From positions 1 to 13,722 of the IMG/VR virus record IMGVR_UViG_2778261570_000018: a stretch of DNA of 13,722 bases. One strand, 5' to 3'. Both the position numbers and the translations under genes were made by a program. Below are positions 1-13,473 of this stretch, piece after piece (positions within the stretch are counted from its first letter, which is position 1; the number at the start of each line of letters is the position of its first letter). The notes under the pieces were generated by a model. The model ran no database searches. It worked only from the letters and a program-made list of their open reading frames with translations, and was not told where the DNA came from. This DNA is from a virus (taxonomy: Duplodnaviria; Heunggongvirae; Uroviricota; Caudoviricetes).

Positions 1-215
1 GTGCTGCGGATGATTTCCTGTCGGTGATTAACCCGGAATCGCTGGTGATCAAACAAGGCTTTGCTGAACCGTCGCTGAAAGAAGCGGTAGCGGGTAAAGC
101 ATTCCAGTTTGAGCGTGAAGGTTATTTCTGCCTCGACAGCCGCCATTCTACGGCGGAAAAACCGGTATTTAACCGCACCGTTGGGCTGCGTGATACCTGG
201 GCGAAGTTAGGTTAA
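1..215 (+). CDS. glnS: Glutaminyl-tRNA synthetase, C-terminal fragment (5' end lies outside the window)
   Basis: Frame 3 is open from the window edge and reads [71 protein letters not shown] recognise this as the C-terminus of enterobacterial GlnRS. Stop TAA is at 213-215. Confidence 0.9.
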
Positions 216-240
216 TAGGTATTTCGCCACATGAAAAAGT

Positions 241-265
241 AAACGCCGCTACTGCGGCGTTTTTT
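241..265. terminator. Intrinsic terminator shared by convergent glnS and the Dam-like gene
   Basis: AAACGCCGC (241-249) / loop TACT / GCGGCGTTT (254-262), followed by a T-run to 265. The reverse strand also has T-rich sequence after the hairpin (TTTACTTTTT). The stop codon of the minus-strand gene (264-266) sits inside the T-run. Confidence 0.75.
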
Positions 266-1169
266 ACTTCATTATTGCAATTATATCGTTAGCAACTACA
301 CGTGTTGACGCCTTGCAGGAAACCGACCGTCTGGCTGCCATATGATGTACTTTAAACCCGTTTCCTTCATATAGCTCACGGATGTTTGGAGCACCACTAT
401 TTGTTATCACTACCTTAGCGCCGCGCTGGTGGGCATCCACCAACAGTGATACAAGCCGTTTTTGTTCATCGAAACGGAAGCTATTTCCTGAATAGCTGGT
501 AAATCCCTCTGTATCCGGAAGCGGTTCATACGGCGGATCACAAAAAATCACATCGTCTTCACCAGCCGCCTCGATGACGCTAGCAAAGTCTCCTGATACA
601 AAGGAAGTGTTTTTGAGTACGTCATCAGCCAAAAATGCCTCCATCTCTGCATGTGGGAAGTAGGGCGCTTTGTATTTGCCATACCCCACGTTGAACTCGC
701 CATTTTGGTTGTACCGCGTTACGCCATTAAAACAGTGACGATTAAGGTACAAAAATGCGGCAGCATGATGTAGCTGGTCATATTTTCCTCTGTTAAATGC
801 CTCACGCACTTCGAGGTAAGCGTCAGCGTTGTTGTAATTTTTGAAAAAACTATATGACAGCGTGACGAGCGAATGTCCTTCTCGCTGCAATGTCTGATAG
901 AAGTTAATCAGGTCACCGTTAATATCATTAAGCAGGTTGTGGCGAAATCCTGCATTCGTAAATACGGAACCGCCACCAACGAATGGTTCTATTAACCGCT
1001 TACCGTGTGGTAGATGCTCAAGCACTGTAGGCAATTCTGAGAATTTACCACCTACCCATTTGAATATCGGACGCTCATATTCATCCGGAGTCCGAATGGT
1101 GCGCATATAGCTAATTTCAGCCATCGTATCCTGTTTTTCTATGGCTATGCTTGCTATAGATTTACTCAT
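264..1169 (-). CDS. dam: Dam-family (D12 class) DNA N6-adenine methyltransferase
   Basis: Motifs FKWVGGK, IEPFVGGGSV (SAM site), FLYLNRHCFNG, GEFNV and catalytic DPPY, colinear with E. coli Dam by eye. Start set at ATG 1169 (MSKS...), with a GGGGG SD 6 nt upstream and an ATGAGTAA overlap with the upstream stop. ATG 1124 (MAEI...) is an alternative. The 333-aa form in the ORF track would run through the upstream gene. Confidence 0.85.
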   Translation of the reverse strand: MSKSIASIAIEKQDTMAEISYMRTIRTPDEYERPIFKWVGGKFSELPTVLEHLPHGKRLIEPFVGGGSVFTNAGFRHNLLNDINGDLINFYQTLQREGHSLVTLSYSFFKNYNNADAYLEVREAFNRGKYDQLHHAAAFLYLNRHCFNGVTRYNQNGEFNVGYGKYKAPYFPHAEMEAFLADDVLKNTSFVSGDFASVIEAAGEDDVIFCDPPYEPLPDTEGFTSYSGNSFRFDEQKRLVSLLVDAHQRGAKVVITNSGAPNIRELYEGNGFKVHHMAARRSVSCKASTRVVANDIIAIMK

Positions 1170-1842
1170 AGAGCACCCCCTTATTCGCTTCGAAAACTGC
1201 CTTTGCGAATCCATGTGGAGTAGCACTTCGAAAATTAGCCCTGTCAGGCCCTGGTGGCGCGGCATGGATTCTGTTATCTGGCTTGCCTAATGATTCGTCC
1301 ATTAGGGCATCAGGCATGACAAAGCCCTGGCCGCTCCAGAGGCATGTTTTTTTGGTGTAGTTATCTTCCTGACAATATGCAGTGAAGAAGTAAGGGTGAA
1401 AGATGTGATCTGGCTTACGCCAGAATGTCGATATTTTGCTGACCGGATTTTCAATCATGTACGGACAACCGATCATCTTTGCAATGTCATAACACTGCCA
1501 GACAACCTGCATTGCTTTGAACTGGAAAACCGGATCTTTATTAGCCTTGTCCGAAAACCAGCGCGCGCCGGAAACAGCCAGGTCAGTACACGGTGGGAAC
1601 CCGGCCAGAAACACGATGCGCTGCAAATTCTTACGGAGAAAAGCGTATACTTCATCGCTATCGATGATCGCACTAATACGCGTCAGAACGGCACCTGATT
1701 GCATCCGCTCGTCACTGGTCGATAAGTGCTGTGGATCGACGATAGCGGCATCGACACCGTATTCCAGCCAGGGGGCAACCATTGCCCCCGTAAAATCACA
1801 AAGACTCACAACAAGCGGTCGGTTATTATCGTTCTGCTTCAC
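1162..1842 (-). CDS. Compact C5-cytosine-methyltransferase-like protein (about 226 aa)
   Basis: Motif IV-like [19 protein letters not shown] (PC catalytic dipeptide), motif VI-like MIENP, degenerate motif [10 protein letters not shown], and C-terminal [15 protein letters not shown] resembling motif X. Start chosen at GTG 1842, with GGAGG 9 nt upstream and a 17-nt overlap with the rdgC-like stop. The ATG at 1914 would lie deep inside the upstream gene. Confidence 0.55.
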
Positions 1843-2731
1843 CGCCAATGGCCTCCACCAGCGCGTTAAACAGTGCAGATAATTCGCCCGTAAAGAGCAC
1901 GAAATCAGCATCAAATCGTTGTGCTACATCCTCCCGGTCGATATCGTCGTTCTGGTCATAGAGATCATCACAGAATGTCAGGGCTTTGATACTCATATCA
2001 TCGTTGACTCTGAACGACGCACGGTCCATCCAGTTAATTGCAACGGTCGTAGCTACTTTCCCCGCCTCAATGTGAGACATAATCTCGTCGGACTGTAGAT
2101 CAACTTTGTTGCAGCGAACGGCACCACCATTATCGAGCAGACCCTTTAATGTGGCGTCTTCACCTGCTGTAAATCCGGCAGGGAAGCCGCTTTTAAACCA
2201 CTCGGTCATTGTAATTTCCAGCGGTTCGCGTGGTGTGAATGGAATGACAGGCAGGCTGCCGAGCGACTTTCGCAATAAAGCCAGCTGGTCCTCTGCCTTT
2301 TTGGCGCTGCTTGCCTCAACGAATACCAGATGGTTGCTGCGGTCGATCAGGATTTTGGCGAGTGATTTTCTCGTGAACGCGCGAGGCAAAAGTGAATGCA
2401 GGACTTCATCTTTAAGACTGTCTCTTTCCGTTTTCTTCAGCTTGCGGGCTTGCTCTTCTTCGAGTTTCAGGACTTTTTTCTGCAACTCTTCCTTGAGCAC
2501 CTGCGAGGGGAGAATTTTTTCTTCTCGCTTATGCTGTATTAGCAGAAAACCCTGGTATTCATGGGTGAGGTTGTCACCAAGAACAGGTGTCCAACCGACT
2601 TTAGCTGTGTCCTGAGAACCGCAAGGAGTAAACACGAATTTGCTAAGAGCATCGGATACTTCTGCGGCACTCCAGTTAACTTCACGTGAAAGACGATAGA
2701 TGAAGATGTTTTTGAAAGCGACTGATCTCAT
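1826..2731 (-). CDS. rdgC: RdgC-family recombination-associated DNA-binding protein (mobile paralogue)
   Basis: 301 aa, colinear with E. coli RdgC as I recall it. Shared blocks: [100 protein letters not shown] and a GGEA.R C-terminus. Confidence 0.9.
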
Positions 2732-2737
2732 GTTTCA

Positions 2738-2781
2738 CCAATTGTGTTAGAAAATTCTATTCAATTATCTAACACAATTGG
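2738..2781 (-). promoter_or_regulatory. Perfect 14-bp inverted repeat flanking a TAGAAT hexamer, between the spike gene and rdgC
   Basis: CCAATTGTGTTAGA (2738-2751) and TCTAACACAATTGG (2768-2781) are exact reverse complements, separated by a 16-nt AT-rich spacer. On the minus strand the spacer contains TAGAAT. The downstream arm overlaps the weak GGTGA RBS of rdgC. Confidence 0.6.
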
Positions 2782-2790
2782 ATGTGTTTT

Positions 2791-3444
2791 CTATCCCTTC
2801 TTGAAATCAAAGTTGCTTGCGATAGCCTGGAAGGTGCCTCCAGCCTTGAAATCAATATTTTCGTCGGCTGTCACAGTAATGTTTTTGCCATTAACGCTGA
2901 TGTTATCGGCTGATTTGACGTTAACACTCCCTCCCGCATTCACTACTACATCAGCCGGACCAATGATGTATATCTGCCCTGATTCATTCATTCCAATCCT
3001 TGAGCCTGCTGCCGTATTCGCTATTTCATATCCACCGCCAGCCGTTCGCACTTCGAGCACATTGTTGCGGTGAATCACGAAATCTTTTGTCGCCGAAAAT
3101 TGCGGGCGGGGAGGCGCTCCGTCTACTTCTGGTGGCGTCCAGCCGCTACCATTGCCTGACGCCTCCGGCGCGACGTTTGGTACTCCGCCAGGCGCATCCT
3201 GAGCTGCGCCAACTATCATTGGGCGTCTGGTATCAATTCGACCATTAACATCCAGATAAGGAAACTCTACCCATACCAGGTCGCCTTTTACTGTAGGTAC
3301 AAAAGCGTTTCCGATGGGTAACAGGTATTCCGCCCAGGGTAGATCGTCATCAGGAACGCCATTCCAGTCAGGTAAAACACGGACTTGAGCACGCATAAGC
3401 CCTGCCGGGTGCACAGTTCCAACAATTTGCGCTCTACGCTTCAT
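2791..3444 (-). CDS. Phage baseplate/tail-tip central spike (gp5 / gpV / VgrG-OB-like)
   Basis: The N-terminal pattern GTVHPAGLMRAQVRVLPDWNGVPDDDLPWAEYLLPIGNAFVPTVKGDLVWVEFPYLD...RPMIVGAA fits the gp5/gpV OB-fold signature. The C-terminus is beta-helix-like repeats (VNAGGSVNVKSADNISVNGKNITVTADENIDFKAGG). ATGA start/stop overlap with the upstream gene at 3441-3444. Confidence 0.65.
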   Translation of the reverse strand: MKRRAQIVGTVHPAGLMRAQVRVLPDWNGVPDDDLPWAEYLLPIGNAFVPTVKGDLVWVEFPYLDVNGRIDTRRPMIVGAAQDAPGGVPNVAPEASGNGSGWTPPEVDGAPPRPQFSATKDFVIHRNNVLEVRTAGGGYEIANTAAGSRIGMNESGQIYIIGPADVVVNAGGSVNVKSADNISVNGKNITVTADENIDFKAGGTFQAIASNFDFKKG

Positions 3445-4421
3445 TTGTTCGGCACTCCCAATATCATTCGTGTTGTGTAGCCTACGCGGTCTTCAAAGTG
3501 CGCAACATTTTTTACTATCAGCTTACGGGGCATTGATTCATCAATGCGGTTTTCCTGGTCATAGCGGTATACGATAATCTCTATCACCATTCCCGGTTTT
3601 ATATCAGGATTGCCTGCGACTTCTATATCCATTTTGGGGACGAGAGACAGCTGCATATTGCGAAGAGTTTCCATATCAGAGTCGGATATATAACGCACTG
3701 GGAGTGAGCTATCGCCATATTCGACGTAGCCATCGGTCATGGAATACCCAACAAAACGATATTGATTCTTTGCTGTTGTCGCATGTTCCTGTTGGAGTAG
3801 GCGCATTTTGGACAAAGTGTATTCTGCTTTAGGGTTATTCCCCTCGTAGGTAAATGATGGCGTTTGCTTCATCAGATCAGCCAGGGTGTAAAAGTTAAAT
3901 TCCCCCCGGCATACCCAACATAATGCACCTTTGTCTCGCGCTATCTCCGAAAGCATTTTTGACGGTTTGTCACCGGCATTCAGATGATATGTAACTGCGC
4001 GTTTTAGCACGCTGCTGGTAATTTTAAGTTTGCCGGAATATGCCTTGAATATAGCGTCTGGTGTTTTGTTGGTATGTAAATTTGTGCGCGGGGAGGGGAT
4101 CTTAAACCTGCGCACGTCTTCACTGACAGCAATAACGGTAACAACATCACCAGCCAGCATTGCAGACGTAACAAAGAAATCTGTTTTAAAAGTGCCTGCA
4201 TTACCGTTTGGATCGCCCATTTCAGCCACCAGCGATGCACCGTATTTGGCTTTCCAGTCATCAATTACGGTGCCGGTAGCGTCATGAATTTCCAGTTTTA
4301 GCAAAGGGGCTTTGAGGCTGGTTTTTTCTACATATACTGCGGTAAAAATCCAGTCTCGTGGCACTTTGTTATCGTTAATGAGCACTGACTGTAGAAAATA
4401 TTGTTGTAACTCCTGGGCCAC
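3441..4421 (-). CDS. Probable tail/baseplate hub protein (gp27 / P2 gpD-like), 326 aa
   Basis: Position immediately upstream of, and coupled to, the spike gene. There is weak by-eye resemblance to the gpD/gp27 layout (LKLEIHDATG...GASLVAEMG...GTFKTDFFV...VTVIAVSED, then KPSKMLSEIARDKGALCWVCRGEFNFY). GTG start at 4421 lies 3 nt after the upstream stop (TGATAAGTG). Confidence 0.4.
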   Translation of the reverse strand: MAQELQQYFLQSVLINDNKVPRDWIFTAVYVEKTSLKAPLLKLEIHDATGTVIDDWKAKYGASLVAEMGDPNGNAGTFKTDFFVTSAMLAGDVVTVIAVSEDVRRFKIPSPRTNLHTNKTPDAIFKAYSGKLKITSSVLKRAVTYHLNAGDKPSKMLSEIARDKGALCWVCRGEFNFYTLADLMKQTPSFTYEGNNPKAEYTLSKMRLLQQEHATTAKNQYRFVGYSMTDGYVEYGDSSLPVRYISDSDMETLRNMQLSLVPKMDIEVAGNPDIKPGMVIEIIVYRYDQENRIDESMPRKLIVKNVAHFEDRVGYTTRMILGVPNK

Positions 4422-4424
4422 TTA

Positions 4425-5192
4425 TCACCCCATAGATATCGAGGTTTCGGTAATAATACGTTTTGCGTCCAACTCCCATGCTGTGATCACGTCTGCAATC
4501 ACACTTATCGGCGCTTGTGTGGCATAAATACGCTCTTCTCCAATTGGTGCTGAAACATCCGTAAAGCCGACTTCTTTGGCATCCTGTATCGAGCAAATCA
4601 ACGGGACCGGGACACGAACAAGGTGAGTGGTGGCTTCAAATTGTGTACCTGTCATCAGGCGAAGCCGTGCGCCCAGCGAATTACACATCAGACTCATGGT
4701 CGCTTTATCAGTTGCCATTAACGTAACGTCATACGTCAGAATGGCCTGGGTGTATTCCAGTTCTGCTAAAGGCATTCCGGTATCCGGTTCGCAAAAACTG
4801 GCTACTTTTTTGCGGTCAATCTGCTGATCATCGTTGATATAATTGATATCCATAGTGCGTGAGATATTGACCAGGGGGAGAGCATCCCGGTTAATGTTCT
4901 GGTTTTCAGGTTTTCTCCCTTGCCCGGCATTTGCGCGACGAACTGCTTTAAGAAACTCGATCGCATTGTCGAAACGGGCCACATAGACACGCTCTGCTGG
5001 TGGACGATTCAGGAATGACGCAAAGCGTTTTTCTTCCGGCGCGGGGGCCACCAGTAAGATATCAGAAAAAATGTTGCTGATTAGCGTCGCAAACGCGTTA
5101 TCCACGTTTTCAAAGCCCGTGGTCTGGAATTTTCCTGTGCGTGAGGTTTGCCATTCACCTGTTCGCGCCAGGAGGGTTTTATTTGAAGTCAT
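4425..5192 (-). CDS. Hypothetical protein, phage-associated (255 aa), possibly tail-tip component by position
   Basis: Long ORF with a GGAG SD 7 nt upstream of the ATG and an ATGA overlap with the upstream gene (5189-5192). I recognise no motifs. Confidence 0.6.
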   Translation of the reverse strand: MTSNKTLLARTGEWQTSRTGKFQTTGFENVDNAFATLISNIFSDILLVAPAPEEKRFASFLNRPPAERVYVARFDNAIEFLKAVRRANAGQGRKPENQNINRDALPLVNISRTMDINYINDDQQIDRKKVASFCEPDTGMPLAELEYTQAILTYDVTLMATDKATMSLMCNSLGARLRLMTGTQFEATTHLVRVPVPLICSIQDAKEVGFTDVSAPIGEERIYATQAPISVIADVITAWELDAKRIITETSISMG

Positions 5193-5980
5193 TCGATCAC
5201 TCCGTTTTGAGTCGTATCAAAATTCCTGGCAGGTATGCAGTAGTAAAGCGAACCAACATGTTGTGTGCCGTAGCTAAAAATACGGTGCACGTACCACCAG
5301 CGGCGGGCTACGCCGTTTACCATCTCTTCATTCCATTCAAGAATTGATCCGACGGGGACTTTATTTGCTGCAATACGCAGAATCAGAACATCATCGGTTA
5401 AGCCATCCTGCTCACCGTCTGCGTCAATCGCATGGAAAGAGTCACGCCCGTCCGGGTTATCCAGCACATAAACGATTTCAGGTTCCTGGTAAGTCAGTTC
5501 GCGCTGGTTGTTATCCAGTTCAGTGAATGACTCTTCTCCTGTTTCGTCGCTGACTACCCCATATGTGCCAACATCTGGTCGATATAAGAGAGCCTGAAAC
5601 GCGTCTGGGCTGGATTCAATAATCAGCATCCAGTCTGCGCGGATTTGGTCGTTAAAGGCTTTATGCCCGTTATAGCGTGCTTTTAACTGTGGAGTCGGTT
5701 CTCTGCCAGCCAGGGAAGATGGAAGTATGGCTATATCTGATTCGCCAGCATCCGGAGTAAGGCCACCGTTGCTATCAGCAAAATTATCATGGCTATCAGC
5801 TTTGGCGGCGGGTTGCTCTTCCAGAATGCTGAATGAATCCGAACCGGTATTGCCATGTTCCGGCGCGCCTCCTGCATTCGCTTCAATCGGCGCTGGCGTT
5901 TCTCTCTGCGTGCTGTCATGTTCTGACTCCTTACTTGCCAGGTTTGCATCGTCAGCAAACCATTCGTCAAAACGGCCCAT
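5189..5980 (-). CDS. Hypothetical protein with acidic, low-complexity N-terminal region (about 263 aa)
   Basis: Long ORF. Start set at ATG 5980 (MGRFDEW...) because GAGGA lies 5 nt upstream. The track start at 5992 is a TTG. The N-terminal ~100 aa are D/E/S/P/A-rich and the C-terminal part looks globular (..RRWWYVHRIFSYGTQHVGSLYYCIPARNFD). Confidence 0.6.
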   Translation of the reverse strand: MGRFDEWFADDANLASKESEHDSTQRETPAPIEANAGGAPEHGNTGSDSFSILEEQPAAKADSHDNFADSNGGLTPDAGESDIAILPSSLAGREPTPQLKARYNGHKAFNDQIRADWMLIIESSPDAFQALLYRPDVGTYGVVSDETGEESFTELDNNQRELTYQEPEIVYVLDNPDGRDSFHAIDADGEQDGLTDDVLILRIAANKVPVGSILEWNEEMVNGVARRWWYVHRIFSYGTQHVGSLYYCIPARNFDTTQNGVIE

Positions 5981-6074
5981 AAGCATCCTCAAAGGTCGAT
6001 CTGTCAGGTATCGAAAGGAAGATTTTCGGGAGATTGTGATTTTGGATGAAGGAGGGGGAATTCATAAAATGCAC

Positions 6075-6142: not shown

Positions 6143-6445
6143 ATGACCAAAAAAATTAACATAAAGGATTTCAGGGATGCGTGGCTTGATGATTTTTTTG
6201 AATTTTCAACACCACATAGAAAGATACCTCCTGATATTCATATGACATTGTCACGGAAGTTGGACATTATCAATGCCGCAACTACCTGTAATGATTTAAG
6301 ATCACCACCAGGTAATCGGTATGAGGAACTGTCAGGGAAGCTAAATGGCTATTCATCAGTAAGGGTGAATAAGCAATATAGGTTAATTTTTAAGTGGGTT
6401 AACGGAAAGGCCGAGGACTTGTATCTCGACCCTCACAAATACTAA
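6143..6445 (+). CDS. higB: HigB-family (RelE/ParE superfamily, 'killer protein') type II toxin
   Basis: 100 aa. Contains RSPPGNRYEELSGKLNGYSSVRVNKQYRLIFKWVNGKAEDLYLDPHKY, characteristic of HigB toxins. It is followed by a cognate HTH antitoxin (toxin-first order typical of hig loci). Confidence 0.8.
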   Translation: MTKKINIKDFRDAWLDDFFEFSTPHRKIPPDIHMTLSRKLDIINAATTCNDLRSPPGNRYEELSGKLNGYSSVRVNKQYRLIFKWVNGKAEDLYLDPHKY

Positions 6446-6452
6446 AACAGAT

Positions 6453-6471
6453 ACCCGGTTACGAACCGGGT
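6453..6471 (+). promoter_or_regulatory. Intercistronic hairpin between higB-1 and higA-1
   Basis: ACCCGGT (6453-6459) / loop TACGA / ACCGGGT (6465-6471), a perfect 7-bp stem within an unusually long 70-nt toxin-antitoxin spacer. No T-run follows. Confidence 0.45.
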
Positions 6472-6515
6472 TCTGACCAGAGTCCACTTAATACGCACGC
6501 TAGTAAGGGCAAAAA

Positions 6516-6854
6516 ATGAAACAGGCAACCAGAAAACCGACGACCGTAGGTGATATCCTGCTGTACGAATACCTGGAGCCGTTAGAGCTGAAGATCAACG
6601 AGTTAGCAGAAATACTTCATGTTCATCGTAACACCGTAAGTGCTCTTGTTAATAATAATCGTAAGCTAACGATGGATATGGCATATCGCCTGGCAAAAGC
6701 ATTCGATACTTCTGTAGATTTTTGGATTAATCTTCAGACCGCAGTAGATCTGTGGGAAGTCGAAAATGATATGCGCGTTCAGGAAGAGTTAAGTCGTATC
6801 AATACTGCTGAAAAATTTATTTCTCAGCGGAACCTGAATAAAAAAGCAGCCTGA
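6516..6854 (+). CDS. higA: HigA-family (VapI/XRE HTH) antitoxin
   Basis: 112 aa. TVGDILLYEYLEPLELKINELAEILHVHRNTVSALVNNNRKLTMDMAYRLAKAFDTSVDFWINLQTAVDLW is the classic HigA/VapI HTH pattern. AAGGG SD lies 6 nt upstream. Confidence 0.85.
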   Translation: MKQATRKPTTVGDILLYEYLEPLELKINELAEILHVHRNTVSALVNNNRKLTMDMAYRLAKAFDTSVDFWINLQTAVDLWEVENDMRVQEELSRINTAEKFISQRNLNKKAA

Positions 6855-6910: not shown

Positions 6911-7270
6911 ATGAACATTAAACCCATCCGTACAGAACAAGATTATGAGGCCGCACTGCGTGCGGTCGAACCGATGTTCGATAACGAACCGGAAATGAAT
7001 ACTCCGGAAGGTGATTTCTTTGAGGTTATGAGTCTTCTCATTGAGGAGTACGAGAAAAAACATTACCCAATTGAGCCACCATCACCTATTGAGGCCATTA
7101 AATTCCGTATGGAACAGCAAGGGCTGACCGTGAAGGATCTGGAACCGGCAATTGGTAAGTCAAACCGTGTTTACGAAGTGCTTAATGGGACACGAAATTT
7201 GACGTTACCTATGATTCGTCGTTTACATGCCCAGTTTGGTATTCCACTGGAAAGCCTGGTTGGCGTTTGA
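6911..7270 (+). CDS. Orphan HigA(YgjM)/COG5499-type HTH antitoxin-like regulator
   Basis: 119 aa. The N-terminal domain is MNIKPIRTEQDYEAALRAVEPMFDNEPEMNTPEGDFFEVMSLLIEEYEKKHYPI. The C-terminal HTH is IEAIKFRMEQQGLTVKDLEPAIGKSNRVYEVLNGTRNLTLPMIRRLHAQFGIPLESLV. This is the same architecture as E. coli HigA (YgjM) as I recall it. No partner toxin of the matching family is adjacent. Confidence 0.75.
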   Translation: MNIKPIRTEQDYEAALRAVEPMFDNEPEMNTPEGDFFEVMSLLIEEYEKKHYPIEPPSPIEAIKFRMEQQGLTVKDLEPAIGKSNRVYEVLNGTRNLTLPMIRRLHAQFGIPLESLVGV

Positions 7271-7300: not shown

Positions 7301-7333
7301 TAAAAAATAGATACTAGAAATTTGGTAGCATAT

Positions 7334-8113
7334 ATGAGTACAGATTCATCAGTAAAGAAGACATCTGAATCAGATAAAGAAAATGAGTCCGTTGTTGATT
7401 CCGTCAAGAATACAATGGAATATGTTATAAAAGACAAAGTATTTAATAAGCTTTTTGCATATATTTTTATATCTTTTCTGGTTGTTAACTGGAGAGATAT
7501 ATTAATTTTGTTCAAATCAAAAGAAGATGTTCTATATACTCTGTCAATAGTTTTTACCGGTGAAAAAATACAATTTCTTGATGGCGAGATTTTACCTCCT
7601 TGGTTTGCCCACTTTTTCTTGCCGTTTTTCTATGGTGTGATTGCGTCGATTGTGGCACCAGTAATTACACTTGCGGTATCTTGCATTACAACTAAGGTGT
7701 ACTATAAAATAAAAATTTTGGACAATAAAACAGACGAAAACGAGAAAGAGAAATTAGCAAAAAGAGCCAAGAAAAGAGCTGAGCGTGAAATAGAGGCTAG
7801 CTATAGCCAACAAAAGCTGGATGAAAGAAAAAAAGAACTGGAAGACATTTTAAACAAAATAGAAGATGAAAAAGAAAAATATGATAAAATGAAAGAAAGG
7901 TTTGATGATGCCATAACGCTTACATATAAAAATATTCACATTTTGCCTACTCTGTATGAGAATAGGAAATGTAAAATTGAAACTCCGCAGGATTTATATG
8001 ATTTTATTGCAGCAATAAAGAAAACATCATTCTATAGTACTGATTTTAATGAATTGTTCTCTGATATTTCTCGATTGTATTCTGAAATGCAAACTGATTT
8101 ATCAGAAAAGTGA
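7334..8113 (+). CDS. Hypothetical membrane-anchored coiled-coil protein (about 259 aa), no recognised family
   Basis: Uninterrupted ORF in very AT-rich DNA. ATG 7334 is preferred; the track start at 7322 is a TTG. It has hydrophobic segments LFAYIFISFLVVNWRDILILF and WFAHFFLPFFYGVIASIVAPVITLAVSCI. These are followed by a K/E/R-rich heptad-like stretch (KEKLAKRAKKRAEREIEASYSQQKLDERKKELEDILNKIEDEKEKYDKMKERF) and a ~65-aa C-terminal region. Confidence 0.6.
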   Translation: MSTDSSVKKTSESDKENESVVDSVKNTMEYVIKDKVFNKLFAYIFISFLVVNWRDILILFKSKEDVLYTLSIVFTGEKIQFLDGEILPPWFAHFFLPFFYGVIASIVAPVITLAVSCITTKVYYKIKILDNKTDENEKEKLAKRAKKRAEREIEASYSQQKLDERKKELEDILNKIEDEKEKYDKMKERFDDAITLTYKNIHILPTLYENRKCKIETPQDLYDFIAAIKKTSFYSTDFNELFSDISRLYSEMQTDLSEK

Positions 8114-9756: not shown

Positions 9757-10038
9757 TTATGCGTGGAAAAATAATGGACGGATGTTTGGGCGAGCGGTTT
9801 GCGAAGCAACCCAAAGCTCATACTGAGATTGCATACCGGTCCACATTTCGGCACTGGTTCCAAGAGCGGACTCCAGACGAAGTGCCATATCAGCAGAAAT
9901 GCCTGCTTTTTCGTTCAGAATTCGGGAAAGTGCCGTGCGAGTAATGCCTAATGCAGCAGCGGCGTCTGTGACTGACATGTCTCCCAAATATTCACGAAGA
10001 ACCGCGCCAGGATGCGCGGGATTATGCATACGACTCAT
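9757..10038 (-). CDS. higA: HigA-family (VapI/XRE HTH) antitoxin, second copy
   Basis: [76 protein letters not shown] is the canonical HigA/VapI pattern. ATG 10038 has an AGGA SD 5 nt upstream. The track start at 10050 is a TTG overlapping the toxin stop. Confidence 0.85.
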
Positions 10039-10046
10039 AGTGTTCC

Positions 10047-10328
10047 TCAATGATAATCCTGATAGTCAACTAGAATTGCGTCTTCTCCTTCAAATCGGAA
10101 GGTAAGTCGCCAGTTACCGTTTACCGATATTGCCCAGTGACCTTTAAGGTCCGCCCCCTTTAGAGGGTGCAATTCCCATCCAGGCGCAGACATATCGTCC
10201 GGGCGTTTAGCTGTATTAAGAGCAGTCAATTGAATGCGTAGCTTAACCGCATGTTTGGCCTGAATGCCTGCGGTTGAACCTGTCTTGAAAAAGCGTTCAA
10301 GCCCTTTATGGCGAAATGACTTAATCAA
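10047..10328 (-). CDS. higB: HigB-family type II toxin, second copy
   Basis: (L/M)[39 protein letters not shown]...[40 protein letters not shown] matches the HigB 'killer protein' pattern, which normally begins MIKSF. I therefore place the start at TTG 10328 (GGATGGA upstream) rather than at the track start 10391, which lies in the promoter. Confidence 0.8.
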
Positions 10329-10354
10329 AATAATTCCATCCGTGCGCGTAACCT

Positions 10355-10391
10355 GTGTATATACACTACACGCAGAGGGAGCGAAATGCAA
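10355..10391 (-). promoter_or_regulatory. Candidate higBA-2 promoter with perfect 12-bp palindromic operator
   Basis: Minus strand: TTGCAT (10391-10386), 17-nt spacer, TAGTGT (10368-10363). The perfect palindrome GTGTATATACAC (10355-10366) overlaps the -10 hexamer. Confidence 0.5.
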
Positions 10392-11450: not shown

Positions 11451-11586
11451 ATGGATTATGTGCAGTTTGTGATTTCCAAAATAGTGTCAACTACTTTTTG
11501 TGGATTTTATTTTTTGTCCGAAATTTGGCCTAAATCATGTTGATTTGGCTGATTATTTTTATAACATAAAACTTCATTTTGTTTAC

Positions 11587-12216
11587 ATGAAGGACGGTGT
11601 AGTGAAGTTAAGGGTTTTAGGGACCGCGCTCGCGGCTATGTTGGGATGCGTATCTGTTAATACTGCCAATGCAACTGCGTTACCTGCAAAGTATTGGGCT
11701 GGTGTGAAAGTGTTGCGGAACGCTGAAAAAGGCAATACAGCTGATGATATTTTCAAGTTTTGCCAAAAAGAAAATATCCCTCTGCACCCGGTTGAGCCGT
11801 ACTTTACAGGAAAGAATGATTTCTGTGTGTTTGCGTATACCGCAGACCAAACAGATAAGGCTATACGCAAGACAGGGTATTCTACTCAAGACACTATGGC
11901 GTCCTTAAGTAAAAACTGGTTGCAGTTTGAGGTTTACCGTAGTGAAGGAATGGGAGAGCTATTGCAGCCACTGTATATGCTGGCGTTAGTTCCGGAAGGG
12001 CAGCAGTTCCTTATTCGAAAAGGAATGCTTCGGAAAAGCGATGTAACCGGATTCAATAACACGATGGAGCTTGAACGCTCAATGAAGCAAAAGCAAGCGC
12101 CTAAGCAGCCAACAGCCGAATGTATTAGCAGCGAGATACAAAAGGCATTAAGCGAGCAGCCTTACATTGATCGTGGTGTGGCGGAAATGGCTGCCAAAAT
12201 GAAGTGTTCCAATTAA
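11587..12216 (+). CDS. Secreted protein or lipoprotein of unknown function (about 209 aa)
   Basis: Signal peptide (M)KLRVLGTALAAMLGCVSVNTANA, with a possible lipobox MLGC or SPase I site ANA-T. Start is ATG 11587 or GTG 11602 (AAGGA 7 nt upstream). The track start GTG 11500 adds an implausible AT-rich leader. Confidence 0.6.
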   Translation: MKDGVVKLRVLGTALAAMLGCVSVNTANATALPAKYWAGVKVLRNAEKGNTADDIFKFCQKENIPLHPVEPYFTGKNDFCVFAYTADQTDKAIRKTGYSTQDTMASLSKNWLQFEVYRSEGMGELLQPLYMLALVPEGQQFLIRKGMLRKSDVTGFNNTMELERSMKQKQAPKQPTAECISSEIQKALSEQPYIDRGVAEMAAKMKCSN

Positions 12217-12259
12217 CGTCAAATAGAATAACAAGATAGTAAATTTTGGAGTTAATGAA

Positions 12260-13081
12260 ATGTTCTTTATGAAAAATGGAAAAAGATTTTCCGCAACAAT
12301 GCTTGCTACTATTGTCGCTCTTTTCGTTCCCACATTCACCTTTGCTTATGATTTTAGCAAAATTGACTGCAATGCCCCTAAAACCAGGCAGATGTTAATC
12401 GATGATTATAATGAACTACTCAAGGACGATCAGGAAGCAATCACTGTAATTGATGCTTATAATCAGATTAATGAAATAAGCGAAAAAAGTAAGCTCCAAT
12501 GTTTAGGCACGTATGAGTTCTCAGATGGAAGTGCGCTTAGAGTTAGATATAAGTTATATTTAAATAGCCTCGGCACACCCATATATGAATTTGCTCCAGT
12601 TGAGGAATTAACGCAGGATGATGTAAGCGCATCTATTCAAAATATCCCTGCAACCACAGCGAGTAGGACTGGGGGGAATGAAGAAACGTATGCCTGCAAG
12701 GTGGCTGTAACTTACAAGGGGGAGCGTTCTAACTATATGGGGGATTCCGGAACATGGGATCGTGTGATTACTGACTATGGCACTTATTTTTCATGGGATT
12801 TACCACGCGGAAACCGAGGCAACAGCACAGGTCAGGATGCTTTTAGTGGCATGGACGAATCAAAGCCTGTATTAGAAAATCAGCTAGTGAGAAAGGAAAC
12901 TGAAAAAGATGGTAGCGTGGTTGATGAGTTTAGGACAGAAGTGAGTTATGGAGATAAACAACCGGTACATAAGTTTGTATATGCCCGTAGAATAAAACCT
13001 ACAGGAACGAGAGAATATTATGTCACTGATTTGACGGACAAGCGGGCATTTATGTTTCTGAATTGCCAGCAAGATTCGTAA
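12260..13081 (+). CDS. Secreted protein of unknown function (273 aa)
   Basis: GGAG lies 8 nt upstream of ATG 12260. Signal peptide MFFMKNGKRFSATMLATIVALFVPTFTFA-YD. I recognise no family. Confidence 0.6.
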   Translation: MFFMKNGKRFSATMLATIVALFVPTFTFAYDFSKIDCNAPKTRQMLIDDYNELLKDDQEAITVIDAYNQINEISEKSKLQCLGTYEFSDGSALRVRYKLYLNSLGTPIYEFAPVEELTQDDVSASIQNIPATTASRTGGNEETYACKVAVTYKGERSNYMGDSGTWDRVITDYGTYFSWDLPRGNRGNSTGQDAFSGMDESKPVLENQLVRKETEKDGSVVDEFRTEVSYGDKQPVHKFVYARRIKPTGTREYYVTDLTDKRAFMFLNCQQDS

Positions 13082-13122: not shown

Positions 13123-13473
13123 TTACTCGGTAATAGTTTTGCAGTTGTTTTGGTTTAAGACCAATCCAAGTTTGCTGGCGGCCAACTCATTTTCTGTGTG
13201 AGAGCCAGCAAATACAAATCCTTGTTTTATCTTATTTACGGTGAAATATTTATTGTATATAAATGCCCAGACAAGTGAAGCTACCCAAGGACCAATTCCT
13301 GCAGTGAGGAATGCCAGGATTAGCATCACAACGAACACCCCGATGAAAGTTATAAAGTCTTTCCTGAACAAAGCCGGGAAGGCACCAAAAAAGAACGTAG
13401 TCCAGGAGAATCCATAAAAGCCTGAGATGGACTCGCCTGTCCGAGGATTTTCTAAGTTAATTTTAGTAGCCAA
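13123..13473 (-). CDS. Small inner-membrane protein (116 aa, two hydrophobic helices; DUF2628-like impression)
   Basis: GFYGFSWTTFFFGAFPALFRKDFITFIGVFVVMLILAFLTAGIGPWVASLVWAFIY. TTG start at 13473 has an AAGGA SD 9 nt upstream. The family call is only an impression. Confidence 0.55.
   Translation of the reverse strand: MATKINLENPRTGESISGFYGFSWTTFFFGAFPALFRKDFITFIGVFVVMLILAFLTAGIGPWVASLVWAFIYNKYFTVNKIKQGFVFAGSHTENELAASKLGLVLNQNNCKTITE

Follow-up and report, generated by a model that had tools for sequence, protein, structure and literature searches.

A putative stand-alone Dcm-like cytosine-C5 methyltransferase encoded between rdgC and dam in a D6-type P1-family plasmid prophage

A Dcm-like C5 cytosine methyltransferase of the phage K42/Warwickvirus type has been reported as the trigger of retron Ec86 (bioRxiv 10.1101/2023.08.16.553469). 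When the K42 dcm gene was expressed alone in E. coli, LC-MS showed that 5mC increased in Ec86 msDNA, no such rise was obtained with the C82A/E128A/K175A/K176A mutant, and the product was identified as 5mC against a standard; the CCWGG specificity given in that study was assumed from the host Dcm and is backed only by msDNA mutations (bioRxiv 10.1101/2023.08.16.553469). Another phage-encoded enzyme, CmoX of Synechococcus phage S-B43 (PDB 8yf3), is a DNA cytosine C5-carboxymethyltransferase, and candidates for this type are defined by the motif SPPC, together with the carboxylate-binding R350 and CmoA/CmoY neighbours (PMC12783734). In phage P1, hrdC is followed by dmt, whose product combines a PF00145 domain and Dam in one 754-aa protein, the cytosine module being a canonical representative of PF00145 (E 1.6e-35).

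The window analysed here (the whole stretch of DNA, 13,722 nucleotides) shows 96.7% nucleotide identity to phage D6 over positions 1-6000. It contains an ORF that is 100% identical to D6 orf64, there annotated as 'putative DNA-cytosine methylase'; since the two ORFs are identical, the comparison with D6 is uninformative on purifying selection. The organization of the locus is as follows, the two Shine-Dalgarno motifs having been read from the sequence:

1826..2731, minus strand: rdgC/hrdC homologue, upstream gene of the operon (PF04381, E 5e-103; D6 orf65, 'similar to P1 hrdC')
1852..1856, minus strand: Shine-Dalgarno motif GGAGG, within the end of rdgC, 9 nt upstream of the methylase GTG
1162..1842, minus strand: probable small Dcm-like C5-cytosine methyltransferase gene, 226 aa, GTG start (D6 orf64)
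1176-1182: Shine-Dalgarno motif AAGGGGG of dam, 6 nt before the dam ATG
264..1169, minus strand: Dam-family N6-adenine methyltransferase, downstream gene (PF02086, E 7e-57; TIGR00571, E 2e-74)
241..262, T-runs on both strands: GC-rich hairpin of 9 pairs (6 GC), directly after the dam stop

Translation of the minus strand at 1162-1842 yields 226 aa uninterrupted by a stop codon. An earlier, sequence-only reading of this DNA had placed a GTG start 17 nt inside rdgC and an overlap with dam at the other end of the gene, and both were found: the last 17 nt of rdgC overlap the methylase start (GTG, 1842-1840), which has GGAGG upstream, and the TAA stop (1164-1162) overlaps the dam ATG (1169-1167) as ATGAGTAA, an 8-nt stop/start overlap. 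The strand of the gene had been left unmentioned in that reading. The coordinates of dam are those of D6 orf63. The mechanical ORF extends further upstream, to a TTG at 1914 (250 aa), but the GTG is the more probable start in view of the D6 annotation, the spacing of GGAGG and the N-termini found in homologues. Translational coupling of the methylase to both rdgC and dam is supported. As a match to a consensus, the hairpin at 241..262 is likely to be the end of an rdgC-methylase-dam transcription unit, and a search upstream of the operon for the P1 C1 operator consensus gave no match at three or fewer mismatches.

The protein belongs to a large and widespread family. Residues 2-224 match positions 8-222 (of 247) of the phrog_757 profile with an E value of 4.3e-78, and the protein is typical of PHROG 757 in being single-domain, 226 aa long and present in phage and prophage contexts. 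Homologues at E<=1e-3 comprised 7,924 of the 8,000 candidates scored (best E 5.5e-145), and tblastn matches were present in 1,580 phage records, numbers well beyond what chance would give. Clustered at 50% identity, the family forms 2,627 clusters, and nearly all of the best 150 are 200-280 aa in length; the exact protein was found on at least 1000 contigs of E. coli, Salmonella and Shigella. The description of the protein as 'unusually small' is thus not tenable: small size is the norm across a family of thousands, and the identical gene is annotated in D6. The gene is real but ordinary, and the value of the finding lies in annotation and follow-up rather than in discovery. Pfam, NCBIfam and PADLOC all miss this common family, which leaves an annotation gap: the RefSeq label, and the name given by the NCBI pipeline to the exact protein, is 'hypothetical protein'. 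Moreover, RefSeq often picks a start giving a 206-aa product, thereby removing strand beta-1 and motif I.

Our interpretation builds on the structure of the gene, its family, and the fold, conservation and synteny observed. According to it, the ORF, orf64 of a D6-type P1-family plasmid prophage, is likely to specify a stand-alone DNA cytosine-C5 methyltransferase with a single domain, a member of the phage small Dcm-like family (PHROG 757). The following segments of the protein were aligned with the motifs of canonical enzymes, and conservation was counted among 103 relatives with 33-52% identity to the query:

1780..1806, minus strand: motif I region S13-M21 (SLCDFTGAM), following strand beta-1; of FxGxG only the second Gly is kept
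1735..1737, minus strand: Asp36 at the end of strand beta-2 (model strand E31-35), motif II-type acidic residue, conserved in 102/103
1564..1602, minus strand: motif IV, G81-A93, with FPPC; codon of the catalytic Cys85 at 1588-1590
1444..1452, minus strand: motif VI, E131-N132-P133 (IENP, 130-133; ENP for ENV), aligned with ENV of M.HhaI
1336..1353, minus strand: K164-K165-T-C-L-W169 on strand beta-7, at the position of motif VIII
1183..1242, minus strand: C-terminal R201-N220, conserved R-S-x-T-P-x-G-F-A followed by the terminal helix

Motif IV with its catalytic Cys was correctly recognized by the sequence-only reading: Cys85 is invariant (103/103), aligns with the FPC of M.HhaI and Dcm, and corresponds to C82 of the K42-type Dcm. 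In a relative (P0217) an intein directly precedes this residue. The extra Pro pointed out there is no oddity, since CmoX, a bona fide C5-family enzyme, has SPPC. The ENP version of motif VI is likewise present as described, with E131 (E128 of the K42-type Dcm) and P133 invariant, N132 found in 98 of the 103 relatives, and the Val of the canonical ENV replaced by the invariant Pro. Motif I, quoted as a degenerate DFTGAM, does lie at residues 13-21, where hhalign pairs it with DLFAGLGG of M.HhaI, and its C-D-F-T-G departs from the canonical F-x-G-x-G SAM loop. Its non-canonical form is not unusual, however, but a norm of the family, which follows S-L-[FCY]-D-x-[TS]-G; a first Gly, where the D6-type protein has Phe, occurs in a single relative out of 103 and the second Gly in 82. 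In the same alignment Asp36 falls adjacent to E40 of M.HhaI, and it would be expected to bind the SAM ribose.

In the C-terminal half, YTKKTCLW and RS.TP.GFA stand where motifs VIII and IX-X, respectively, would be expected. K164, T166 and W169 are invariant, K164/K165 correspond to the K175/K176 mutated in the retron study, and the K164-W169 segment may be the equivalent of QxRxR. Within the C-terminal motif, R205, S206, T208, P209, G211, F212 and A215 are each conserved in at least 90% of the relatives; the conserved Arg205 may lie close to where the motif X Asn would be. The C-terminus had been called motif-X-like: the quoted letters are there (201-220), but the likeness was not seen by sequence (aligned alone to canonical motifs VIII-X, the C-terminal half showed no detectable sequence similarity) and comes from the C-terminal helix of the structural model (residues 210-224). 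Because only about 25-35 residues separate strand beta-7 (166-171) from the C-terminal motif (201-220), a separate target-recognition domain (TRD) is absent, in agreement with the earlier remark that almost no room is left for one.

The AF2 model (pLDDT 87.4, pTM 0.86) has a seven-strand Rossmann-like core, and the top 13 matches in a Foldseek search of the PDB were all DNMT3 or DNMT1; the fold is therefore of the class I methyltransferase type, closest to the catalytic domains of C5-methyltransferases. Profile searches gave a different picture. The sequence-only reading had named the lack of a profile hit to C5-methyltransferases as evidence against itself, and the PF00145 scan of the protein indeed gave no hit at E<=1, and hence none at the gathering threshold; scans with NCBIfam and PADLOC gave no match, and among the 103 relatives only one reached PF00145 (E 0.0039). 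Searches of PDB sequences (phmmer and two family-profile searches) produced chance hits or none, and no solved structure was found. In a profile-profile comparison (hhalign), the family profile aligned with a small canonical alignment (M.HhaI relatives, Dcm and the N-terminal half of P1 Dmt) with motifs I-VI colinear, albeit at a weak E value of 0.013, and with E. coli Dcm alone at E 0.56. Despite the missing PF00145 hit, a link between the family and the C5-methyltransferases is supported by structure and profile-profile comparison, which agree with the conserved catalytic Cys and motif VI Glu in upholding the original description of the protein as C5-methyltransferase-like.

SAM use, 5mC as the product, DNA as the substrate and the biological role are, for the D6-type clade, properties that we infer, and the mechanism is drawn from established C5-methyltransferase chemistry. 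The beta-1 loop (S13-G19) would hold SAM together with Asp36, which ends beta-2, the target cytosine would be flipped into the pocket, its C6 attacked by Cys85 of motif IV (FPPC) and its N3 protonated by Glu131 of motif VI (ENP), and the methyl group would then be transferred to C5. Since there is no separate TRD, DNA would be contacted by the catalytic loop and by the conserved basic residues K99, R142, K164 and R205 of the core and the short C-terminal segment, and the specificity is expected to be short or relaxed. The rdgC, methylase and dam genes would be translated as a unit via their overlapping stop and start codons, so that cytosine methylation would be placed on the DNA of the phage or plasmid along with methylation of adenine in GATC. 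Such modification would most plausibly serve to shield this DNA from restriction when a new host is entered.

Other interpretations of the same protein have to be weighed against a methylase acting alone. The sequence-only reading had listed, besides a minimal orphan cytosine methylase, a subunit needing a partner, in which the C5 chemistry alone would be contributed by the small protein, and the targeting by the downstream Dam or by some other phage or host protein. The missing TRD, with its 25-35 residues in place of a domain, and the 8-nt overlap with dam would suit such a division of labour, as would a natural fusion of the small Dcm-like family to Dam (P0121) and P1 Dmt, which has both modules, C5 and Dam, in a single polypeptide. 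DNMT3B, the best structural match, works as an oligomer. A required partner nevertheless seems unlikely to us, as the gene has neither Dam nor another conserved neighbour in most relatives (this applies to the T1-like gene and to copies in a Pseudomonas prophage and on a phage contig, the latter two being stand-alone), the K42-type Dcm raised msDNA 5mC when expressed alone, and other fusions in the family involve unrelated modules (HNH in P0172, a helicase in the BFVD entry A0A6J5SE15). If, on the other hand, the degenerate motif I had cost the protein its SAM binding, it might be an inactive pseudo-enzyme kept for DNA binding, regulation or as a decoy. The bulky Phe at the first Gly of FxGxG, the failure of any Pfam or NCBIfam methyltransferase model to recognise the protein and its pipeline name would all be compatible with this, yet we regard it as highly improbable: an invariant catalytic Cys and Glu, and a beta-2 Asp retained in 102/103 relatives at 33-52% identity, would be difficult to account for if the protein neither catalysed a reaction nor bound a cofactor, the bulky motif I residue is a family-wide norm and not recent decay, and the intein in a relative targets the very site of the catalytic Cys.

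E. coli makes Cx-SAM with CmoA, and the covalent-Cys chemistry could in principle install a non-methyl group (e.g. carboxymethyl from Cx-SAM) or act on ssDNA, hairpins or RNA. No positive evidence was found for the 'different base modification' that had been proposed earlier, and we consider this interpretation very unlikely: the product of the relative is 5mC against a standard, the protein has FPPC and not the SPPC that defines CmoX candidates, the window holds no CmoA, CmoY, TET, glycosyltransferase or other hypermodification gene, and the corresponding genomic slot in P1 is filled by an ordinary C5 methylase domain. A similarly low probability attaches to the idea that the D6-type majority, which lacks both the TRD and the first Gly of motif I, consists of context-directed enzymes of single-stranded, hairpin or replicating DNA, or of enzymes using a non-SAM donor such as host Cx-SAM. 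The orphan cytosine methylase is the interpretation that agrees with the fold matches, the conservation within the family and the reported formation of 5mC by a relative at 37% identity.

This relative provides the closest comparison. The Dcm of phage FritzSarasin (bas04_0049) aligns end-to-end with the D6-type protein at 37% identity (E 1e-41), and its 236-aa form has C82/E128/K175/K176, as reported for the 711-bp dcm of phage K42; these residues correspond to C85/E131/K164/K165 of the D6-type protein. Both types are phage-borne orphans of similar size (236 vs 226 aa) and share RS.TP.GFA.AVFE.N and an 18-letter motif. The T1-like protein, however, has a canonical motif I (LFDGSG; FDGSG) in contrast to LCDFTG, carries a 14-residue insertion before KKT, and is encoded alone among small early or hypothetical genes, whereas the D6-type gene lies between rdgC and dam. 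Experimental support applies to the T1-like protein only; since this one member carries the canonical FDGSG, an activity in the D6-type clade is extrapolated across 37% identity. Searches of the literature turned up nothing specific on methylomes linked to Drexlerviridae or to D6-type Dcm-like genes. Biochemically, the family is represented by a single datum, 5mC in hairpin msDNA, which comes from the atypical T1-like clade with its canonical motif I. As the relative is a reported retron Ec86 trigger, prophage carriage of such genes matters for predictions of phage defence and host range.

Among cellular enzymes, M.HhaI and E. coli Dcm show no significant HMMER similarity to the D6-type protein, which is about 100-250 residues shorter, has no TRD and no QxRxR or GN motif X detectable by sequence. 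The catalytic domains of DNMT3A and DNMT3B (PDB 6u8p, 4u7t) share only 8-13% sequence identity with it; they belong to eukaryotic, multidomain, CpG-specific enzymes that act as oligomers, while the phage protein is shorter still, with no motifs IX-X detectable by sequence. A CmoX-type identity finds no support (FPPC instead of SPPC; no CmoA- or CmoY-like gene within the window). Orthology to P1 Dmt was rejected, because BLASTP against the N-terminal cytosine-methylase half of Dmt gave a best E of 2.9 and only the hrdC-X-dam synteny is shared; D6-type elements therefore carry a non-orthologous replacement of this module, as a separate gene. According to the P1 record, Dmt methylates adenine in GATC and 'perhaps' also cytosine at C5. 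The RdgC-X-Dam order recurs in another P1-like plasmid (63% identity), and P1 and the D6-type locus use the same slot, with a cytosine-methylase module coming after hrdC/rdgC and before Dam.

The open reading frame at 1162-1842 (minus strand) is translated without internal stops into a protein of 226 aa, which contains all of the motif strings quoted in the sequence-only reading. The GTG start within rdgC and the stop overlapping dam, also described there, hold at the following positions.

Features of the methylase gene, its product and its surroundings
1826-2731, minus strand: rdgC (hrdC), the upstream gene, whose end overlaps the methylase start
1842-1840, minus strand: GTG start of the methylase gene, 17 nt inside the end of rdgC
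9 nt upstream of this GTG, minus strand: GGAGG, read from the sequence
Residues 13-21 of the protein: SLCDFTGAM, motif I region
Residues 81-93: motif IV string (13 residues)
Residues 130-133: IENP, motif VI
Residues 201-220: C-terminal string (20 residues)
1164-1162, minus strand: TAA stop of the methylase gene, overlapping the dam ATG as ATGAGTAA
1169-1167, minus strand: ATG of the downstream gene dam (Dam-family adenine methylase), with AAGGGGG 6 nt before it
241-262: bidirectional terminator-like hairpin beyond dam

The mechanical reading frame extends to a TTG at 1914; the GTG is preferred because of the phage D6 annotation, the Shine-Dalgarno spacing and the N-termini of homologues, which start a few residues ahead of the conserved S-L-x-D. 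Public annotations place the start differently (226-, 216-, 212- and 206-aa versions), and the common 206-aa version, starting at Met21 (1162-1782), would remove strand beta-1 and motif I, both conserved in homologues. In the longest dam frame (264-1265, minus strand; ATG at 1265, 333 aa), 104 nt would be shared with the methylase gene. The 301-aa form called in D6 and by PGAP (ATG 1169) is more likely, since it has a good Shine-Dalgarno sequence and the Pfam match in the 333-aa form starts only at residue 70. At its start, the window holds the 3' end of a phage glutaminyl-tRNA synthetase gene (1-215, plus strand; D6 orf62, glnS; anticodon-binding domain PF20974), which converges on dam at the hairpin.

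The first 6000 nt of the window are 96.7% identical to Escherichia phage D6, which is a plasmid prophage of the P1-like type, and the whole window matches E. coli and Salmonella plasmids of roughly 90 kb at 96-98%. The methylase frame corresponds to D6 orf64 (same coordinates, same GTG start, 0 differences in 681 nt), annotated as "putative DNA-cytosine methylase" in GenBank and "DNA methyltransferase" in RefSeq. It lies in a tract of 1,178 nt (843-2020) that is 100% identical to D6 and runs from the dam end through the whole methylase gene into the 3' portion of rdgC, flanked by segments up to about 18% diverged (32-37 differences per 200 nt in 2400-3200). Such a pattern is ordinary phage mosaicism, and the tract has the look of a patch acquired by recent recombination. 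At least 1000 contigs carry the exact protein, mostly as "hypothetical protein" at NCBI and as "DNA cytosine methyltransferase" in UniRef. Its 90%-identity cluster also holds unrelated 301-aa Dam proteins and has a representative of 301 aa; this is presumably a clustering artefact, caused by gene calls that read through or were fused over the overlap of 8 nt.

Among P1-type tail genes of the window lie two HigB-like toxin/HTH antitoxin pairs (6143-6854, plus strand; 9757-10391, minus strand), whose toxins match PF05015 (E 2e-35 and 1e-20) and each adjoin a PF01381 partner, and a third HTH gene (6911-7270). Accessory regions between the tail-gene blocks hold frames without family assignment (7322-8113 and 11500-13081, plus strand; 13123-13473, minus strand), including those for a 263-aa membrane/coiled-coil-like protein, a membrane protein of 116 aa and two proteins (238 and 273 aa) that appear to be secreted.

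The methylase frame is not a chance one, since 7,924 of 8,000 scored candidates are homologues at E<=1e-3 and tblastn found matches in 1,580 phage records. PHROG 757 ("DNA methyltransferase") matches along the whole protein (E 4.3e-78). An exhaustive profile search yielded 2,627 clusters at 50% identity, the best 150 of which nearly all have representatives of 200-280 aa; the small size, previously considered unusual, is thus the norm of the family. The PF00145 profile search that had been proposed gave no match, nor did NCBIfam and PADLOC scans, and only one of 103 diverse relatives reached PF00145 (E 0.0039). HMMER-level methods therefore give no connection to canonical C5 methyltransferases, and no solved structure was found by sequence or family profile.

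In an alignment of 103 sequences (33-52% identical to the protein, including one added T1-like protein), Cys85, Glu131, Pro133, Lys164, Thr166 and Trp169 are invariant, in agreement with the catalytic Cys of motif IV and the ENP version of motif VI recognised earlier. Asp36, where beta-2 ends, occurs in 102 of them, and F82, P83, G92, K99, N132, R205, S206, T208, P209, G211, F212 and A215 each exceed 90%. The catalytic pair and the beta-2 Asp speak for retained catalysis and cofactor binding. The family pattern of motif I is S-L-[FCY]-D-x-[TS]-G, and the canonical FxGxG has its first Gly only in the added T1-like protein; the other sequences have Tyr, Arg, Leu, Lys or Phe there. Although non-canonical, the "degenerate" SAM motif is a stable character of the family rather than decay in this gene, as 102 of 103 sequences lack this Gly. 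Between beta-7 and the conserved C-terminal motif lie only about 25-35 residues, so the protein has no target-recognition domain, just as the scarcity of room had suggested. The structural observations of the sequence-only reading were correct, but concern family-wide traits. In one homologue of 548 aa (P0217), motif IV is interrupted by an intein (Hint and LAGLIDADG domains), which sits exactly after the two prolines and before the catalytic Cys (FGFPP / CFTGDTLV...IVHN / CTNLSVSGARWF); the same Cys is therefore also the +1 extein nucleophile.

AlphaFold2, run with 54 homologues, gave a confident model (pLDDT 87.4, pTM 0.86) with a seven-strand Rossmann-like core followed by a C-terminal helix, the loop after the PPC motif being its sole poorly predicted stretch. 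M.HhaI and M.HaeIII score about 9.5, the level of generic Rossmann proteins. The top 13 Foldseek matches in the PDB are all DNMT3/DNMT1. Compared by profile with a small canonical alignment (M.HhaI relatives, E. coli Dcm and the N-terminal half of P1 Dmt), the family aligns colinearly over motifs I to VI, at an E value of only 0.013. The C-terminal half has no sequence similarity to motifs VIII-X, and of the proposed motif-X-like C-terminus only the helix is recovered.

In established C5-methyltransferase chemistry, a Cys attacks C6 of a flipped cytosine, a Glu protonates N3 and C5 is methylated. The protein is quite probably a SAM-dependent, stand-alone DNA cytosine-C5 methyltransferase; following this scheme, Cys85 would attack C6, Glu131 would protonate N3 and C5 would receive the methyl group. 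It would be translated in coupling with rdgC and dam as one unit and, together with Dam methylation, probably shields phage or plasmid DNA from restriction. A subunit dependent on a partner, for instance for targeting, is improbable: elsewhere the gene is found by itself, among small early genes of T1-like phages, in a Pseudomonas prophage and on a phage contig, which indicates no obligatory partner. Slightly less probable still is an enzyme forming an alternative adduct or using a non-duplex substrate. An inactive pseudo-enzyme, to which the altered motif I might point, is the least likely of these, given that this motif is a family trait and that the catalytic pair is invariant and the beta-2 Asp nearly so. 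The identical gene already carries an annotation in D6; a PHROG exists for the family, and one member has been studied experimentally. In phage genomes, "Dcm-like" is a routine label for small methylases of this family.

P1 has dmt after hrdC; Dmt joins a canonical PF00145 domain (E 1.6e-35) to a Dam domain, and the P1 record gives GATC methylation and "perhaps" C5-cytosine methylation. D6-type elements retain the order rdgC, cytosine-methylase-like gene, dam, which also occurs in another P1-like plasmid with a 63% identical methylase, but the sequence of their middle module shows no relation to the P1 domain (BLASTP E 2.9). Orthology was rejected on this basis, and the D6-type methylase is a non-orthologous replacement occupying that slot. 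In P0121 (563 aa), the small methylase is naturally fused to Dam, which recreates the Dmt architecture. The domain is also fused to an HNH endonuclease (P0172, 348 aa) and, in a very large protein (BFVD A0A6J5SE15, 1397 aa), to a helicase.

The experimentally studied relative comes from phage K42, whose mutants escaping retron Ec86 had a disrupted 711-bp dcm (preprint 10.1101/2023.08.16.553469, later titled "DNA methylation activates retron Ec86 filaments..."). Expressed alone, K42 dcm was toxic together with the retron, and LC-MS of purified msDNA revealed increased C5-methylcytosine, which did not rise with a C82A/E128A/K175A/K176A mutant; CCWGG specificity was assumed by reference to the host Dcm, the only support being mutations in msDNA (10.1101/2023.08.16.553469). 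Read from an internal Met, the FritzSarasin "Dcm-like C5 cytosine methyltransferase" has 236 aa and carries Cys82, Glu128, Lys175 and Lys176 at exactly the numbers of the preprint. It aligns end to end with the 226-aa protein (37% identical, E 1e-41), in which Cys85, Glu131, Lys164 and Lys165 correspond to these four residues. Unlike the 226-aa protein, the T1-like clade has a canonical FDGSG motif I.
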